This document shows positions 8,924-63,058 of a stretch of DNA of 64,000 nt, piece by piece. Numbering within the stretch: position 1 is the stretch's first letter; each line of letters begins with the position of its first letter. The DNA is taken from the sequence record MT533174.1. One strand, given 5' to 3'. A model generated the notes under the pieces. That model saw only the letters and a list, made by a program, of their open reading frames with translations, did not search any database and was not told the origin of the DNA. Source of the DNA: Escherichia phage CJ20. The position numbers and the translations under genes are program-made.

Positions 8924-8951
8924 GTACAAGCCCCTTGTCTTAGGACATAAT
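8924..8951 (+). promoter_or_regulatory. Early sigma70-type promoter
   Basis: TGTACA 8924-8929, 16-bp spacer, CATAAT 8946-8951, then leader motif TGATTCCATACTGAG. Confidence 0.5.
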
Positions 8952-9896: not shown

Positions 9897-9928
9897 GTTT
9901 ACATCAAAGGGATAATGCTGTATATTAT
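9897..9928 (+). promoter_or_regulatory. Early sigma70-type promoter
   Basis: GTTTAC 9897-9902, TATATTAT 9921-9928, leader CCTATCAACTACTGAGGAG. Confidence 0.5.
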
Positions 9929-9954
9929 CCCTATCAACTACTGAGGAGATTGAA

Positions 9955-20835: not shown

Positions 20836-21590
20836 TGAAACCAGAATTTATTGACTTTGATGTTGTAAGTATGTATGTTCGCCCAATTAAACCATTAAAA
20901 CTTGAGAAACAAAATATGACTATTGAAATTAACAAAACTTATCAACTGATTGAACCTATTATTCAAAACGCAGCTATGGTTTCTGGATATAATACTTTGA
21001 CTGATGCTTTAGGTGAAGGCGAATTTATTGTTGAAACTTTTGTAAAAAGTAACTGGTTTGATAAAGCATATATTCTACATGCACGTCGCCTTGATACAAA
21101 TGAAGTAGAAAAAATTATGGTTTATGAAGCTGAGATTGAACTCTTTAAAGAAGTTGAAGAAACTCCTATCAAAGTTGGTAAAACCTACCAGCTTATTGAA
21201 GATGATAGTCAATTTGGAAAGACTGTCGCAATGCATGCTGGTTGGCGTGTACTAAAAGGTATTTTTGGATTTACTCCATTTACCGTTAAAACAGTTAAGT
21301 ACCACAATCACCAAAGCATCTTTGAATTTACTGCAGTCAATGAATCAGGTGACAATCTTGAAGCTATCCTTTATCCGCGTGAATCTGTACTGCTGAAAGA
21401 AGTTAGCGAACTGGGTGACCCTGTTGACTTGCTGTGTAAACCAGTTCAAATCAAACGTCCATTTAATAGTTCCATTTGTGGTTGGGTAACAGACCAGTGG
21501 ATTGAAGATGGTGTTGAACTCCTGAACGTCGTCCATGCTGGTGAATTTACTGTTGTCCCACGTTCCATGGTTGTTGAAATTTTTAATTAA
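20835..21590 (+). CDS. Hypothetical protein (251 aa) with internal repeat and C-terminal DQWIEDGV domain
   Basis: KTYQLIE occurs twice; C-terminal 35 aa paralogous to C-terminus of ORF 21667-22158. Confidence 0.5.
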   Translation: MKPEFIDFDVVSMYVRPIKPLKLEKQNMTIEINKTYQLIEPIIQNAAMVSGYNTLTDALGEGEFIVETFVKSNWFDKAYILHARRLDTNEVEKIMVYEAEIELFKEVEETPIKVGKTYQLIEDDSQFGKTVAMHAGWRVLKGIFGFTPFTVKTVKYHNHQSIFEFTAVNESGDNLEAILYPRESVLLKEVSELGDPVDLLCKPVQIKRPFNSSICGWVTDQWIEDGVELLNVVHAGEFTVVPRSMVVEIFN

Positions 21591-21595
21591 ATTTG

Positions 21596-21624
21596 TGTAC
21601 ATACTCTTGGGACCAGAGTATAAT
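21596..21624 (+). promoter_or_regulatory. Early sigma70-type promoter with -10 inside hairpin loop
   Basis: TGTACA 21596-21601, TATAAT 21619-21624; hairpin GGGACC(AGAGTATAAT)GGTCCC 21609-21630. Confidence 0.5.
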
Positions 21625-21666
21625 GGTCCCACTGGAGAATAAACTTATTAACCAAGAGAGAAAATT

Positions 21667-22158
21667 ATGAAAGTTGAAGCTGGTGATATTGTACGTGTTT
21701 CTAAAGAATCTCGTTCTAAAGCTGCTGGTCGTTTTGTTGAGGTTGTGGGTCTTCGCACTAATTTAGTAGGTGGAATTAAAGAAGTTAAAGTGCGTATTAT
21801 TCCTAAACATGGTCATGCTGAAACTCAATTGGCTTATGTACATCCTAAATTCCTGGAATCAACTGAATTTACTGGATACATCGCTCCAGTAGTTGAAGAA
21901 GTTGAAACCATTGACCAGTCTCATGTTGGGGTTGATTTTAAATGGAAATTAGGTAAAGGTGTCTTTTTCGTTTCACCTAAACCGTTTGAATACAAGTGCA
22001 AGTATGGTCCGACTTATGAAACCACTAGTATGTCCGGTTACATCACCGACCAGTGGGTTGAAGAAGGCGTTAAGCTCTATAACATCGTGTTCCTTGGAAC
22101 CTTTAAGGTTGTTCCTGAGAGCTTTATCGTTGAGTATGCTGATATTCATTTTGCCTAA
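21667..22158 (+). CDS. Hypothetical protein (163 aa), C-terminal DQWVEEGV domain
   Basis: C-terminus GYITDQWVEEGVKLYNIVFLGTFKVVPESFIVE parallels GWVTDQWIEDGVELLNVVHAGEFTVVPRSMVVE of previous gene. Confidence 0.5.
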   Translation: MKVEAGDIVRVSKESRSKAAGRFVEVVGLRTNLVGGIKEVKVRIIPKHGHAETQLAYVHPKFLESTEFTGYIAPVVEEVETIDQSHVGVDFKWKLGKGVFFVSPKPFEYKCKYGPTYETTSMSGYITDQWVEEGVKLYNIVFLGTFKVVPESFIVEYADIHFA

Positions 22159-25749: not shown

Positions 25750-25772
25750 GGTCTCCTTCGGGAGACCTTTTT
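25750..25772 (+). terminator. Rho-independent terminator (GGTCTCC-TTCG-GGAGACC + T run)
   Basis: Perfect 7-bp stem, TTCG loop, TTTTT. Confidence 0.75.
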
Positions 25773-30924: not shown

Positions 30925-30954
30925 TGTACATCAGTATGGAGTCTAATGTATAAT
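30925..30954 (+). promoter_or_regulatory. Early sigma70-type promoter
   Basis: AAAAAGTAGTGTACA, TGTACA 30925-30930, TATAAT 30949-30954, leader TGATTCCATACTGAG. Confidence 0.5.
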
Positions 30955-30988
30955 GATTCCATACTGAGCTACTAACTGGAGAAACAAA

Positions 30989-31252
30989 ATGAAATTTAAA
31001 TTTTACTATGTCAAGCATAAAGTTACTGGGGAATTTGTTGCATTTACAACTTCATCCAATAATCAAGGTGATACTTTTACTTCATTGTTCTTATCCAGAT
31101 GGGATTCAGACCAGCCTTATTTGTCCACAAAAGAGCATCTTCAACGTATGGCGAAGGGCGAGCTAAACGATTCTTGGGATAATATTGTGAATAATTGTAT
31201 CAAGAAAGCTATCCAAGAAAATCAACTTGAAATCATTGAGGTGGAATTGTGA
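30989..31252 (+). CDS. Hypothetical protein (87 aa), tandem paralog A
   Basis: N-terminus MKFKFYYVKHKVTGEFVA; paralog of next ORF. Confidence 0.5.
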   Translation: MKFKFYYVKHKVTGEFVAFTTSSNNQGDTFTSLFLSRWDSDQPYLSTKEHLQRMAKGELNDSWDNIVNNCIKKAIQENQLEIIEVEL

Positions 31253-31515
31253 ATATTAAATTATATTACGCCAAGCACAAAGTTACAGGTATGGTTGTTG
31301 CTGCTATGTATGACGCGTCAGGTGATGGTGATGATGTTATTACAGAGTTATCTCTTTCTGATTGTAAATTTCTTCGCCCGTTGGTTGCATCAAAGCGTGA
31401 TTTAAAAAAGCTTATTGATGGTAAGCTGGACAATATTGATGGTATAGATATTTTTTATGACCTCCGCGTCGCATTGTCTGATGGATTGATTGAAATCAAA
31501 GAGGTGATATTTTGA
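31249..31515 (+). CDS. Hypothetical protein (88 aa), tandem paralog B, GTG start overlapping upstream stop
   Basis: N-terminus (M)NIKLYYAKHKVTGMVVA; GTGA start/stop overlap. Confidence 0.45.
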   Translation: MNIKLYYAKHKVTGMVVAAMYDASGDGDDVITELSLSDCKFLRPLVASKRDLKKLIDGKLDNIDGIDIFYDLRVALSDGLIEIKEVIF

Positions 31516-31607: not shown

Positions 31608-31635
31608 TGTACATCTCCGGTGGTTGTAGTATAAT
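31608..31635 (+). promoter_or_regulatory. Early sigma70-type promoter
   Basis: TGTACA 31608-31613, 16-bp spacer, TATAAT 31630-31635, leader CCTATCAACTACTGGAG. Confidence 0.45.
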
Positions 31636-31661
31636 GAACCTATCAACTACTGGAGATGATT

Positions 31662-31995: not shown

Positions 31996-32237
31996 AACTT
32001 TTTAAAGACATTGCAGTTGGTGAAAAATTTGTCCTGGGTAATGGTCAACAACTGATTCGCATTTCGCCTTTAATGGATTCAAATGAACATCCTGTGCGCA
32101 CTGAAAACTGTTTGGATTATCCTTTTTATCAGAAGCGTTTTGCAATTGAAAATAATACTGAGTGCTTCACAGTTGATGAACTGATGGAATCATCAGAAGA
32201 AGTTGACTTGTGGGATGGTGTGGTAGACCCTGAATAA
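31992..32237 (+). CDS. Hypothetical protein (81 aa)
   Basis: ATGA overlap with upstream ORF; acidic C-terminus. Confidence 0.45.
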   Translation: MKLFKDIAVGEKFVLGNGQQLIRISPLMDSNEHPVRTENCLDYPFYQKRFAIENNTECFTVDELMESSEEVDLWDGVVDPE

Positions 32238-32252
32238 ACTGAGGAAAATATT

Positions 32253-32597
32253 ATGTCTAAAGTATTTTTTGGTAATGCTAAAGTTATGTTCTTTAAACAG
32301 ATTAGCCTTCAGGAGGCGTCGGAGGCATTCAATCAAAGTATGATTCCTGACGTACATCCAAAAGTTATGACGAGTGCTGATTTCGTTTTCGTCCAAGACC
32401 CGGAAACAGGCTTTTATCGGTTCATTAAATTTCGTATGAGTATGGAGCCAGGTTATCATAGTGCTTACTACGTGAGTTATGAAAATGTTATCAAAGAATT
32501 GCGTAATACCTATAAGCGCGCTTTGACCCCGCTGAATAAGGTGTATAATGCTTCCTTTTATACGAGCGGATTTATTTTAGAACAACTTCAAAAATAG
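32253..32597 (+). CDS. Hypothetical protein (114 aa)
   Basis: SD GAGGAAAATATTATG; no homology recognised. Confidence 0.45.
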   Translation: MSKVFFGNAKVMFFKQISLQEASEAFNQSMIPDVHPKVMTSADFVFVQDPETGFYRFIKFRMSMEPGYHSAYYVSYENVIKELRNTYKRALTPLNKVYNASFYTSGFILEQLQK

Positions 32598-32626
32598 TGT
32601 ACATACTCTTGGGGTCAGAGTATAAT
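32598..32626 (+). promoter_or_regulatory. Early sigma70-type promoter with -10 inside hairpin loop
   Basis: TGTACA 32598-32603, TATAAT 32621-32626; hairpin GGGGTCA(GAGTATAA)TGACCCC 32611-32632. Confidence 0.5.
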
Positions 32627-32670
32627 GACCCCACTGGAGCACAAAACTTTAACTTACTGAGGAAATTAAT

Positions 32671-33120
32671 ATGACTACTTACATGACCCGTCGTGACGTA
32701 CTGAATGCTGGCGCTACCACTGTTGCTCACATCCATAATGGCAATTATGTTGCAGGGCGTCCAACTAAAGAAGCTATCGCCCAACCAGGTTTTTATTTCG
32801 TGGTCAAAGGTGAAGGCGAATCGCGTATTGTTGCCGCACGTTTTTATGTTGGTAACCAACGTTCACAACAAGGGTTTGACACTGTATTAAGTCACATCCG
32901 CAAACAGCGTTCACAACTGTCACGCACAATGGCGAACAATGGTGTTATCTATGAAGTCCTGTTTGTTCCAGTTTCTAAAATGAAACCCCTGACAACTGGT
33001 TATGGTAAAGGTCAAATTGCGATGGCGTTCACTCGCTCACATAGTTCTGATTGCCAGACCCTTTCAGAAATGAATCGCATGCTTGCTGATAACTTTAAAT
33101 TCATTCTGCAGAGCTATTAA
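32671..33120 (+). CDS. ndd: Nucleoid disruption protein Ndd
   Basis: 149 aa; [43 protein letters not shown] match remembered T4 Ndd. Confidence 0.8.
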
Positions 33121-34938: not shown

Positions 34939-34960
34939 AGGACCCTTCGGGGTCCTTTTT
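34939..34960 (+). terminator. Rho-independent terminator (AGGACCC-TTCG-GGGTCCT + T run)
   Basis: 7-bp stem, TTCG loop, TTTTT. Confidence 0.75.
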
Positions 34961-37083: not shown

Positions 37084-37248
37084 ATGAGTCATAACTTAGA
37101 GAACACCATCACTGGTCAGCGTACACGCGAGCAGGCTTGCTTTGAGGAATTCCTTGGAGCTGATTTTAAGTTCCAGGAACCAGTTGAACAGTTGTATCAG
37201 GAATATGTTGTACAGATGGAAAATCATGTGTACAACCCAGAGGAATAA
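37084..37248 (+). CDS. Hypothetical small protein (54 aa)
   Basis: SD AAGGAGAATCACTATG; acidic. Confidence 0.3.
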   Translation: MSHNLENTITGQRTREQACFEEFLGADFKFQEPVEQLYQEYVVQMENHVYNPEE

Positions 37249-52014: not shown

Positions 52015-52020
52015 TATAAG

Positions 52021-52042
52021 GGGACCTTCGGGTCCCTTTTTT
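52021..52042 (+). terminator. Rho-independent terminator (GGGACC-TTCG-GGTCCC + T run)
   Basis: Perfect 6-bp stem, TTCG loop, TTTTTT, 7 nt after gene 32 stop. Confidence 0.75.
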
Positions 52043-52549: not shown

Positions 52550-52777
52550 ATGGCTAAAGTTAATATTGATATCGTTGATTTTGAATACACTTACGAAGTT
52601 ATCCGCAATCGTTATCCTTCTTTGTGTATGACTTACATTAAAGATACCCAATTCTTTAGTGTTCAAATTGAAGTCCAGGGTCCTCTTGAAGACCTTACCC
52701 GCTTTATGCAAAATGAATATTGCGAAGGGATGCACCCGGAAGACGCTAAATTTTATATGAATTTGATTGAAGCTTAG
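52550..52777 (+). CDS. Hypothetical protein (75 aa)
   Basis: ATG after leader motif; no homology recognised. Confidence 0.45.
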
Positions 52778-52833
52778 TATACAAACCAACGGGAACATGC
52801 TAATATGTTCCCAACTGAAATGAGGAAATTAAA

Positions 52834-53202
52834 ATGATGGAAACTGGTAAATTTTACGTATTAGACCCTGCTGCTAAAAAACAATTCATCGCTGGTAGTC
52901 CTGATGATAATTCGTGCATAGTCAAGCTGATGGAACAGCATGGCAGTTCCTTCAAAGTCCTGGATATGTGCTTTATTGATGGCGATTATTTTGTTGAAAA
53001 AGTTGAAATGAAAGATGGCACCATCCTGAATAGTATGGGGGATTCTGATGAGTACTTTGAACTCGCTGAATGGGAATTCTGTCACTTCCTGGAAGTTGAT
53101 GGCGATGCTCCTTATGTTGATACCCAAACCATTCATGTGCAGGTAAATCATAAAAATGCCGCAGAAGTCATTGCACTGATTAAAGCAACTTTTGGGGTCT
53201 AA
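52834..53202 (+). CDS. Hypothetical protein (122 aa), paralog of 52125-52487
   Basis: See 52125; SD GAGGAAATTAAAATG. Confidence 0.5.
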   Translation: MMETGKFYVLDPAAKKQFIAGSPDDNSCIVKLMEQHGSSFKVLDMCFIDGDYFVEKVEMKDGTILNSMGDSDEYFELAEWEFCHFLEVDGDAPYVDTQTIHVQVNHKNAAEVIALIKATFGV

Positions 53203-53458: not shown

Positions 53459-53465
53459 AAAGTAG

Positions 53466-53494
53466 TGTACAACCAAATGGGGCTATGACATAAT
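53466..53494 (+). promoter_or_regulatory. Early sigma70-type promoter
   Basis: AAAAAGTAGTGTACA, TGTACA 53466-53471, CATAAT 53489-53494, leader TGGTCCCATACTGAG. Confidence 0.5.
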
Positions 53495-53531
53495 GGTCCC
53501 ATACTGAGTTACCAAATAACTGGAGAATAAA

Positions 53532-60970: not shown

Positions 60971-60999
60971 TGTACAAGCCCCTCCTTTCTATACATAAT
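60971..60999 (+). promoter_or_regulatory. Early sigma70-type promoter
   Basis: GGGGTGTACAAGCCCC hairpin containing TGTACA 60971-60976, CATAAT 60994-60999, leader CCATCAACTACTGATGAGGA 61004-61023. Confidence 0.5.
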
Positions 61000-61030
61000 G
61001 GTTCCATCAACTACTGATGAGGACTAAAAC

Positions 61031-61264
61031 ATGTTAAACTTAATTACAAATGAAAGAGTTACACAGGCATATGGTGACAGTAATGACGGAATCTATGTCT
61101 ACAAGGGAGACCGCCGGATTGGTTTCATTACTGACCTGAAGGCCAAATTGTTAAAAGAACTGAAAGCTCAAACAGGTGATTCTGGGTTTAGAGCAAGAGC
61201 CAAAAAGAAAGATGAACGCCTGGGTGCCAACTCTTTTGGTCCCCGGGGTTACAACCGCTACTAA
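61031..61264 (+). CDS. Truncated paralog of the Alc N-terminus (77 aa)
   Basis: N-terminal 45 aa (GDSNDGIYVYKGDRRIGFITDLKAKL) parallel Alc (GDRHDGIYVYKGTKKIGLMTDLRKKL) encoded immediately downstream. Confidence 0.5.
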   Translation: MLNLITNERVTQAYGDSNDGIYVYKGDRRIGFITDLKAKLLKELKAQTGDSGFRARAKKKDERLGANSFGPRGYNRY

Positions 61265-62516: not shown

Positions 62517-62545
62517 TTTACAAACTCTTGGGAGCAGAGTATAAT
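62517..62545 (+). promoter_or_regulatory. Early sigma70-type promoter with -10 inside hairpin loop
   Basis: TTTACA 62517-62522, TATAAT 62540-62545; hairpin GGGAGC(AGAGTATAAT)GCTCCT 62530-62551. Confidence 0.5.
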
Positions 62546-62573
62546 GCTCCTACGGATTATAAAATTTGAGGAA

Positions 62574-63058
62574 ATGACTATGACATTACGTGATAACAGT
62601 TTTGTGGCTAAGCCTGAATACATTTCAGGTGTTAAATCCCCTGCATTACAAAAGCTCTTAAAATTAGGGTCCTGTGCAAGTACACCAATTGAAAAGAAGG
62701 CAACTTTTGATTTTGCTTGGGCTATGGTGGACGGTATTGATGTAGTAAGACAGGTAACTTTTTATGCTCCGGGCGCTATTAAGCCTTCGCAAATTATTAA
62801 TCTGGATGGAAGTAATTATATTACTATTCAGCATTGGTATCGTATGATGCGACCTGTTTGGGAATACCCGGAATTTATTGAAGAATACAATGAAAAAGAA
62901 CGTATTCGTGAGCTAGTAAAAAGTTTTGAATACGCGGCTAAACGCCATGGTCAAATGCAATCTGCCGCTGCACTTGGTGATGTTTCTGAAAGTGCAGCTT
63001 ATGAAACTGGTAAAATCCTTAAAACCTGTCGCGAAGAACTTTATAAGGAGCTTGGCGT

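Follow-up and report, generated by a model that had tools for sequence, protein, structure and literature searches.

The closest described relatives of the element treated here, a compact unit of early promoter and hairpin that recurs in a 64,000-nt stretch of Escherichia phage CJ20 (MT533174.1; this whole stretch is called the window, and all coordinates refer to it), are the promoter-early stem-loops (PeSLs) of phages RB49 and phi1. PeSLs comprise an A/T-rich tract and a consensus sigma-70 promoter with a Shine-Dalgarno sequence (SD) and start codon at the end, are conserved over ~100 bp, and are concentrated in hyperplastic regions, where they adjoin indels (Arbiol 2010, PMC2839356). In the same study, the only stem-loop tested, that of PeSL211/210, cut lacZ expression like a strong terminator, PeSL-PeSL recombination was found to yield mini-circles, and PeSL-like sequences were already noted in phage JS98. 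PeSLs are also reported from PST/T4 and nt-1/KVP40, together with a discussion of the T4/PST ndd.4/ndd.5 region (Comeau 2014, PMC4122927). A related arrangement is found in the T4 gene e, soc, 49 and I-TevI leaders, in which, as in the copies studied here, the promoter lies within hairpin-coding DNA and long and short transcripts fold differently; in those leaders, however, the promoters are late or middle ones and the SD or AUG is masked. Finally, RegB cuts the T4 motB mRNA in vivo, efficiently and at a GGAG (Durand et al. 2006, PMC1702504).

In this study, we find that the focal elements belong, by all the PeSL features that were compared at the sequence level, to this described class, and that the pairing of their stem is maintained through compensatory change. 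We propose that they are probably compact early-gene control cassettes of the PeSL type whose hairpin acts in read-through RNA as a transcript boundary. Known already are the PeSL class and the T4 motB promoter and RegB site, which are orthologous to copy 1. New here are the compensatory evolution with its sense-strand G.U signature, the 8-bp stem, the enrichment of stems at early promoters and the adjacent RegB-type site. The finding reveals no new kind of system. It shows that the PeSL stem-loop is not a mere by-product of a promoter beside a G/C-rich repeat, and compensatory changes with an RNA signature narrow its possible roles. Moreover, the literature on PeSLs and that on RegB/S1 and motB, which make no cross-reference on this point, describe parts of one element.

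Strict cassettes occur three times in the window (21596, 32598 and 62517), all on the + strand and in the places where the initial annotation had put them; a fuzzy search allowing up to 4 mismatches found no further strict copies in the 64 kb, and no Rfam family matched anywhere in the window at the gathering threshold. Based on the annotation of close relatives, copy 1 lies upstream of motB and after motB.1, copy 2 lies upstream of ndd, and copy 3 heads a run consisting of a VR7-gp239-like open reading frame (ORF), a gp238-like ORF and pseT. Each cassette measures ~85 bp and fills the gap from the stop codon of the upstream early gene to the ATG of the next gene. The order of parts is the same throughout. 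A TGTACA or TTTACA box is followed by a spacer of 17 nt, which consists of N-ACTCTT, six variable nucleotides forming the first arm, and AGAG. Next come TATAAT and a second 6-nt arm that can pair with the first, then GGA(G/U)nAYAAA at +4 to +14, ~20 nt more, and the real SD and ATG. The arm pairs are GGGACC/GGTCCC in copy 1, GGGGTC/GACCCC in copy 2 and GGGAGC/GCTCCT in copy 3, the last with one outermost G.T. The features of the three cassettes are as follows.

21575-21595, + strand: A/T-rich tract of copy 1, 5' of the -35 box; the motB.1 stop codon lies at 21588-21590
21596-21624, + strand: early promoter of motB (copy 1), TGTACA at 21596-21601, TATAAT at 21619-21624, predicted +1 at A21631
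21608-21631, + strand: 8-bp hairpin of copy 1, UGGGACCA/UGGUCCCA with loop GAGUAUAA, -13.9 kcal/mol as RNA
21634-21644, + strand: RegB/S1-type motif of copy 1, GGAGAATAAAC, a 10/11 match to GGAGRAYARAA
32598-32626, + strand: early promoter of ndd (copy 2), TGTACA at 32598-32603, TATAAT at 32621-32626, predicted +1 at A32633
32610-32633, + strand: 8-bp hairpin of copy 2, UGGGGUCA/UGACCCCA, -13.9 kcal/mol as RNA
32636-32646, + strand: RegB/S1-type motif of copy 2, GGAGCACAAAA, a 10/11 consensus match; the ndd ATG lies at 32671
62517-62545, + strand: early promoter of the VR7-gp239-like ORF (copy 3), TTTACA at 62517-62522, TATAAT at 62540-62545, predicted +1 at A62552
62529-62552, + strand: 8-bp hairpin of copy 3 with one G.U, UGGGAGCA/UGCUCCUA, -11.6 kcal/mol as RNA
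62554-62564, + strand: GGAU-type RegB-like motif of copy 3, GGATTATAAAA, with an A-rich tail as in the T4 motB site; the ATG lies at 62580

With their 17-nt spacer, the -35 and -10 boxes score 10/12 consensus matches, in agreement with the near-consensus sigma-70-type early promoter annotated at each site. They are preceded by A/T-rich tracts (ttgaaatttttaattaaattt, ttcaaaaatag and tatttttggaaag in copies 1 to 3), and in copy 2 the stop codon TAG of the upstream ORF (32595-32597) abuts the -35 box. The 5' arm of the stem lies within the promoter spacer, the -10 box in the loop and the 3' arm at -6 to -1. Placement of the -10 box in the loop was annotated correctly, but by folding the stem has 8 bp rather than 6 (U-GGGNNC-A with U-GNNCCC-A) and the loop, GAGUAUAA, has 8 nt. 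Of the two extra pairs, one is between the T preceding the 5' arm and the A that follows the 3' arm; the other links AGAG, through its A, to the final T of TATAAT. The minimal RNA hairpins reach the energies listed above at z ~ -4, and folded as DNA they have about half that stability (-5.4 to -7.5 kcal/mol). In copy 1 the RegB-type motif belongs to the leader and is not the SD, which is GAGAG at ~21656, ahead of the ATG at 21667. An alternative spacer hairpin, ATACTCT/AGAGTAT, is complementary, but it never occurs in the minimum-free-energy structure and offers no variation by which to judge it; we do not adopt it. The -35 hexamer TGTACA is its own reverse complement, and for this reason promoter scans also call the - strand (32574-32603, - strand).

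Pairing of the arms is borne out by comparison. An IMG/VR pattern search with ACTCTT and AGAGTATAAT fixed and both arms left free gave 35 related copies, which together with the three window copies form an ungapped alignment of 38 sequences from ~8 loci, 18 of them distinct. Among these 18 distinct cassettes, 144 of the 144 cells of the 8-bp helix are standard pairs and three pairs have changed on both sides (G-C/A-U; A-U/G-C; C-G/G-C/U-A), a covariation score reached by 0 of 500 shuffles. Just 35-53 % of cells pair in slid-register controls, and arm complementarity is hardly ever seen where the same flanking words match unrelated database sequences. With a covariance model derived from this alignment, further copies were found, among them those of T4, SP18 and VR20 as well as two diverged copies from the window; fitted to this model, the enlarged set comprises 26 distinct rows and 204 cells, 99.5 % of them paired, with five pairs changed on both sides and four Watson-Crick types at the most variable pair. 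The pairing of the stem is real and statistically sound, and it has been maintained through compensatory change. The covariation claimed earlier from the three copies alone is upheld.

The exceptions to Watson-Crick pairing carry a strand signature. On the + strand, the 17 non-Watson-Crick cells of the 18 distinct cassettes fall into six distinct classes; every one of these cells is G.U or U.G, and none is A.C. Read on the - strand, the same 17 cells are A.C, so pairing is not kept on both strands; in copy 3 the - strand loses the outer pairs and 6 pairs are left. The motB locus illustrates the steps. From the state GGGACC/GGTCCC, present in the window and in T4, single-step G.U intermediates are seen in VR25 and VR26 (GGGGCC/GGTCCC) and in L021 (GGGATC/GGTCCT), and the doubly compensated state GGGGTC/GACCCC, with the same arms as the ndd-locus copy, is present in VR20 and SP18. 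A change from G-C to A-U at pair 2 likewise has its intermediate, GGGAGC/GCTCTC in L006, next to GAGAGC/GCTCTC in L183 and others. Transitions that break a Watson-Crick pair should yield G.U and A.C equally often by chance; against this expectation, the ratio of 6:0 classes (~0.016 one-sided) is suggestive of selection on the sense strand.

Arms of 8 bp with an 8-nt spacer are unfavourable for cruciform extrusion. This poor geometry and the G.U-only bias favour selection on sense-strand RNA in read-through transcripts over a DNA cruciform. The initial annotation had placed action on read-through RNA and action at the DNA level side by side; the former is favoured here and the cruciform is disfavoured. 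A DNA-level element, in which a cruciform or single-strand hairpin would serve as a recombination or nuclease target and drive PeSL shuffling, would suit the position of the cassettes at gene-replacement and indel junctions. Yet, besides the geometry, the - strand would hold A.C at all 17 G.T cells and lack the outer pairs of copy 3, the DNA hairpins are weak, and homologous recombination requires just the ~85 bp of similarity and no stem, while divergence of the arms even interrupts that homology. We consider such an element improbable. Under selection on sense-strand RNA, the origin of the hairpin RNA follows from the promoter: because the 5' arm lies upstream of the predicted +1, hairpin RNA would come solely from read-through, and RNA from the cassette's own promoter would lack the hairpin, as had been annotated from the position of the 3' arm at -6 to -1.

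The position of the stem is tied to promoter geometry, and most early promoters of the window, some without a stem, carry a C-rich CCY right before +1. Both observations would fit a pure promoter constraint, in which contacts of RNA polymerase shape the spacer and the G+C-rich discriminator (-6 to -1), for instance through open-complex lifetime or DksA/ppGpp, and complementarity is a by-product or tunes DNA melting. This explanation, to which we likewise attach a low probability, does not account for the discriminator changes that match those of the spacer arm at three to five positions, or for the bias of the mismatches to G.U. In addition, RB49 PeSL stems can sit wholly in the spacer, and the discriminator/DksA idea finds no support in a study of T4 early promoters, which tied no discriminator motif to the DksA effect (PMC6024815). 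The T4 ndd.1/ndd spacer (L232, T4 164300-167200) also argues against it: it keeps a stable hairpin of unrelated sequence at the same place (GGCCGTG-tgtattca-TGCGGCC), followed by TT and then GGAGUAGAAAA / GGAGTAGAAAA. Its SD-ATG is that of window copy 2, yet neither a -35 nor a -10 box can be recognised. A hairpin with a RegB-type motif can therefore exist without a promoter.

This motif lies 2-3 nt 3' of the stem, and all copies share the form GGA(G/T)nAYAAA. Compared with the RegB/S1 consensus GG*AGRAYARAA, the three copies match at 10/11, 10/11 and 9/11 positions, the last at 10/11 when GGAU counts as a match. In T4, the early promoter of motB is a strict cassette copy (TTTACAAACTCTTGGGACCAGAGTATAATGGTCCCGTGGAGTATAAAA), of which window copy 1 is the orthologue. 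The minimal in vitro RegB substrate ends in GGAGUAUAAAA (Durand et al. 2006, PMC1702504), which is exactly the motif of the T4 cassette copy, and primer-extension stops have been seen at the T4 motB promoter (PMC1702504). GGAG and the A-rich motif of the T4 motB leader thus stand in the same place as in the window copies, although the sequence differs (GGAGTATAAAA in T4; GGAGAATAAAC, GGAGCACAAAA and GGATTATAAAA in the window). In the RegB papers considered here, we found no discussion of the hairpin. The regB gene lies outside the window and is annotated in the close relative VR26 as AVV66_gp115. Elsewhere in the window, matches to the RegB consensus are mostly normal translation-initiation regions built as GGAGAATAAAATG. 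By this comparison, the motif of the cassettes resembles an SD with its spacer that no ATG follows; the genuine SD is located 20-25 nt beyond it.

From the strand signature and the geometry of the promoter, we infer that the hairpin functions as RNA in read-through transcripts. A co-oriented gene ends a few bases 5' of each cassette, and read-through transcription across the cassette is therefore expected. RNA reading through from the upstream gene would fold the hairpin, whereas RNA from the cassette's own promoter, which lacks the 5' arm, would not. The most likely role of the hairpin in the read-through RNA is that of a transcript boundary. Read-through may be attenuated or terminated there, comparable to the effect of the RB49 PeSL stem-loop in the reporter assay. 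The hairpin may also, after a cut by RegB or another RNase 2-3 nt downstream of it, remain at the 3' terminus of the upstream message and block 3'-to-5' exonucleases. According to a review of T4 mRNA decay, RegB cuts make entry points for 3' exonucleases, so that a hairpin 2-3 nt 5' of the cut would be well placed to protect the upstream message.

A further consequence may concern the RegB site itself. In folding predictions, the stem is lengthened by pairing of the conserved CUCU with the GGA of the RegB motif, and the partition-function probability that this GGA is unpaired is 0.49, 0.60 and 0.32 for copies 1 to 3 in own-promoter RNA and 0.10, 0.06 and 0.09 in read-through RNA. If the CUCU:GGA pairing holds, RegB would be kept from its site in read-through RNA, but the site would be exposed in RNA initiated locally. 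RegB is inhibited by secondary structure (PMC3014915); given the predicted masking of GGA, promoter choice could, speculatively, decide RegB sensitivity. A tentative idea, which we hold to be rather unlikely, is that the hairpin inside the promoter separates two sets of transcripts from one gene with respect to decay through RegB. If true, read-through RNA would be RegB-resistant through CUCU:GGAG or, if cut, would give an upstream message capped by a 3' hairpin, and RNA from the own immediate-early promoter would expose a RegB site at +4 and enter rapid decay by RegB, polynucleotide kinase (PNK) and RNase G/E. The -10 box in the loop would then be a device by which promoter choice sets the fate of the mRNA.

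Several points weigh against the proposal of an RNA boundary element and of its link with RegB. The +1 positions are predicted from promoter geometry, and a search of the literature for T4 RNA-end maps on a genome-wide scale yielded none that could be used. The copies are orthologues and paralogues, and the independent double substitutions are for this reason few, perhaps 4-6; at the motB locus, the arms could have been switched by short-patch conversion from the ndd copy. That ACTCTT and AGAG do not vary in the alignment is partly an effect of the search pattern, and the CUCU:GGA extension, invariant on both sides, has no covariation support. The mismatch G.T is also the least destabilising one in single-stranded DNA. 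With respect to RegB, site 2 has C at consensus positions 5 and 7 and site 3 is GGAU; these positions matter, and among the T4 RNAs that are cleaved, C at 5/7 occurs rarely or not at all (Durand et al. 2006, PMC1702504). In vitro, RegB/S1 does not need the nucleotides 5' of GGAG (Durand et al. 2006, PMC1702504), and the hairpin is therefore not part of RegB recognition. As to termination, no U-tract follows the stem at any of the three focal copies (flanks ACUGGAGAAU, ACUGGAGCAC and ACGGAUUAUA), so that usual intrinsic termination is not expected, and the only terminator experiment concerns one RB49 stem-loop that lies wholly within the spacer (PMC2839356). Rho-independent terminators share with the focal cassettes a G+C-rich stem-loop at the end of a gene, but the focal stems differ from them in having no U-tract, which rules out a canonical intrinsic terminator; a terminator scan of the window did not call the focal stems, whereas canonical terminators elsewhere were called.

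The likeness to T4-type promoter-plus-stem-loop shuffling cassettes, drawn in the initial annotation, extends to every PeSL feature compared. The elements recur: the 64 kb contain three strict and two diverged copies. All three focal copies have an A/T-rich tract 5' of the -35 box, near-consensus sigma-70 boxes with a 17-bp spacer and a stable stem-loop overlapping the -10 box. They are intergenic, their 3' ends being formed by the SD and ATG of the following gene (motB, ndd or the gp239-like ORF), and paralogous similarity among the window cassettes gives BLAST matches of 80-87 bp from stop codon to ATG. The PeSLs of RB49/phi1 and the window cassettes are thus alike in their parts, namely an A/T tract, a strong sigma-70 promoter, a stable stem-loop of the form G(N)-loop-C(N) that sits in the spacer or overlaps the -10 box, and SD/ATG, as well as in being intergenic, repeated, similar over ~100 bp and next to indels and gene replacements. 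They differ in the -35 box, which is TGTACA/TTTACA and not TTGACA in the window, and in the spacer frame ACTCTT...AGAG of the window. In the description of the PST/T4 PeSLs the stem-loops lie upstream of the promoter, whereas in the window and at T4 motB the stem encloses the -10 box.

For a direct comparison, 68 kb of RB49 were inspected. Many early promoters there have the same layout, e.g., GGGAGTAT...ATACTCCC around the -10 box, and their arms form a similar series of GGGAGTA/TACTCCC and GGGGGTA/TACCCCC with the G.U intermediate GGGGGTA/TACTCCC. A strand-bias check on a small RB49 sample gave 4 perfect stems, 1 G.T and 1 terminal T.C. The stem of PeSL211/210 lies wholly within the spacer and is followed by TATACTACAC, without a canonical U-tract. 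A word search of Arbiol 2010 (PMC2839356) found no mention of compensatory change or of a sense-strand G.U bias.

The association of stem and promoter is wider than the three focal copies. We defined early-type promoters as + strand occurrences of exact TGTACA or TTTACA with a 16-18 nt spacer and at least 5/6 matches to TATAAT, and strong stems as minimum-free-energy structures in which 6 or more pairs enclose the -10 box and whose energy does not exceed -10 kcal/mol. Such a stem is present at 7 of the 16 early-type promoters, compared to 0.55 expected from flank shuffles (P ~8e-8). In promoter 4459 the stem lies inside the spacer; promoters 34975 and 52058 have no such stem, and a canonical UUCG-tetraloop terminator stands directly upstream of each. 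The rule of this genome is a stem-loop plus an early promoter, and the three focal copies are one sequence family within this rule. The other members are the following.

52778-52812, + strand: diverged family member, TATACA, 17-nt spacer, TAATAT; stem GGGAACAUG/UAUGUUCCC (52791-52812)
53466-53502, + strand: diverged family member, TGTACA, 17-nt spacer, CATAAT; stem UGGGGCUAU/AUGGUCCCA with two G.U
30925-30972, + strand: early promoter of the same architecture and different sequence; 13-bp stem UCAGUAUGGAGUC/GAUUCCAUACUGA enclosing the -10 box, z = -4.9
31608-31658, + strand: early promoter with an ndd.4-like ORF downstream; an 18-bp stem encloses the -10 box, with SD GGAG in the 3' arm
9898-9932, + strand: early promoter; 10-bp stem AGGGAUAAU/AUUAUCCCU overlapping the -10 box

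The covariance model matches the two diverged cassettes at 52773-52819 and 53461-53508, the first being located upstream of an ORF that starts at 52834. The stems of unrelated sequence show the same behaviour: at 9898 pairing is kept via a G-C to A-U switch in L007, and at 30925 the sole arm change yields a U.G pair. These data bear on the view that there is no structural selection and that a few hairpin variants arose once and were spread by cassette duplication and gene conversion. The copies are clearly related, and the identity of the VR20/SP18 motB arms with those of the ndd locus is consistent with short-patch conversion. Nevertheless, each variant still needed matched changes in both arms; four Watson-Crick types are found at one pair and two at others, with only G.U as intermediates; the unrelated stems at 9898, 30925 and 31608 and those in RB49 behave alike; and the enrichment of -10-enclosing stems at early promoters is independent of the copy family. 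An origin without structural selection is therefore very hard to credit.

In the 31608 cassette, the SD itself is involved. The predicted probability that it is unpaired is 0.55 in own-promoter RNA and 0.00 in read-through RNA, i.e., it would be wholly masked in the latter, which fits the logic of the T4 gene e and soc leaders. In T4, the ndd.4 promoter carries a comparable 13-bp stem whose 3' arm includes the SD. With the T4 precedent (PMC3014915), translational insulation of the gene e/soc/49/I-TevI type, in which a hairpin with an internal promoter masks the SD in long transcripts, may be considered for the focal copies as well. However, their SD lies 20-25 nt beyond the stem, and its predicted unpaired probability barely changes between own-promoter and read-through RNA (0.69 vs 0.64, 0.62 vs 0.55 and 0.37 vs 0.48). 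SD masking at the three focal copies was rejected on this near-equal accessibility in long and short RNA, and insulation is a distinctly improbable account of them. What is predicted to be masked in the focal copies, unlike in the gene e type, is the RegB motif and not the SD.

Gene replacement around the cassettes is seen at several sites. Downstream of the site-3 cassette, the window, L022 and L005 each have a different gene, and the break falls at the SD-ATG edge. In VR26, a ~55-bp cassette core (L020 802-847) stands between the same two genes that have just CCCTGAATAAAC between them in the window (32225-32252). This short sequence resembles a remnant of the 3' arm with the RegB-like motif. 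Downstream of the 30925 cassette, the genes differ among the window, VR20/VR25 and VR26, and an ORF indel follows. Two tandem paralogous small ORFs (MKFKFYYVKHKVTG... and VNIKLYYAKHKVTG...) are located here in the window (30989-31252 and 31249-31515, + strand); VR20 and VR25 have a single copy, and VR26 has an unrelated gene. In our model, repeated cassettes would supply recombination homology by which the downstream gene is swapped between relatives.

The window derives from a VR7/SP18/VR26-like T4-type coliphage (Gaprivervirus, Straboviridae). Its + strand is the direction of early transcription, with gene 43, dda, dexA, motB, rIIA, rIIB, denB, ndd, 52 and motA; after motA, tail-fibre genes follow on the other strand, and then gene 32, nrdAB, alc and pseT. 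Canonical UUCG-tetraloop terminators with T-runs lie at 25750-25767, 34939-34956 and ~52020-52040, those at 25750 and 34939 being called on both strands. The early promoter at 60971-61031 (+ strand) has a GGGG-TGTACAAG-CCCC stem around its -35 box, and the predicted accessibility of the SD of its downstream gene is 0.12 in read-through RNA vs 0.52 in own-promoter RNA. At 37210-37240 (+ strand), two TGTACA at 37229 form a TTGTACA...TGTACAA hairpin 5' of a weak promoter.

Early leaders of the window carry further repeated motifs. The motif ATCAACTACTG has 8 exact + strand copies compared to 1.3 expected (8649, 9353, 9933, 16434, 20553, 31642, 52093 and 61006), each just 3' of a -10 box and CCY, and most of them continue into (ATGA)GGAKAATAAAATG. 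The same leader is present in the T4 denB/ndd.6 spacer, with the variant ATCAACTATG in the T4 ndd.5/ndd.4 spacer. A third leader type, (G)ATTCCATACTGAG, is found directly 3' of the -10 box at 8950, 17190, 30960, 35005 and 53500 (+ strand).

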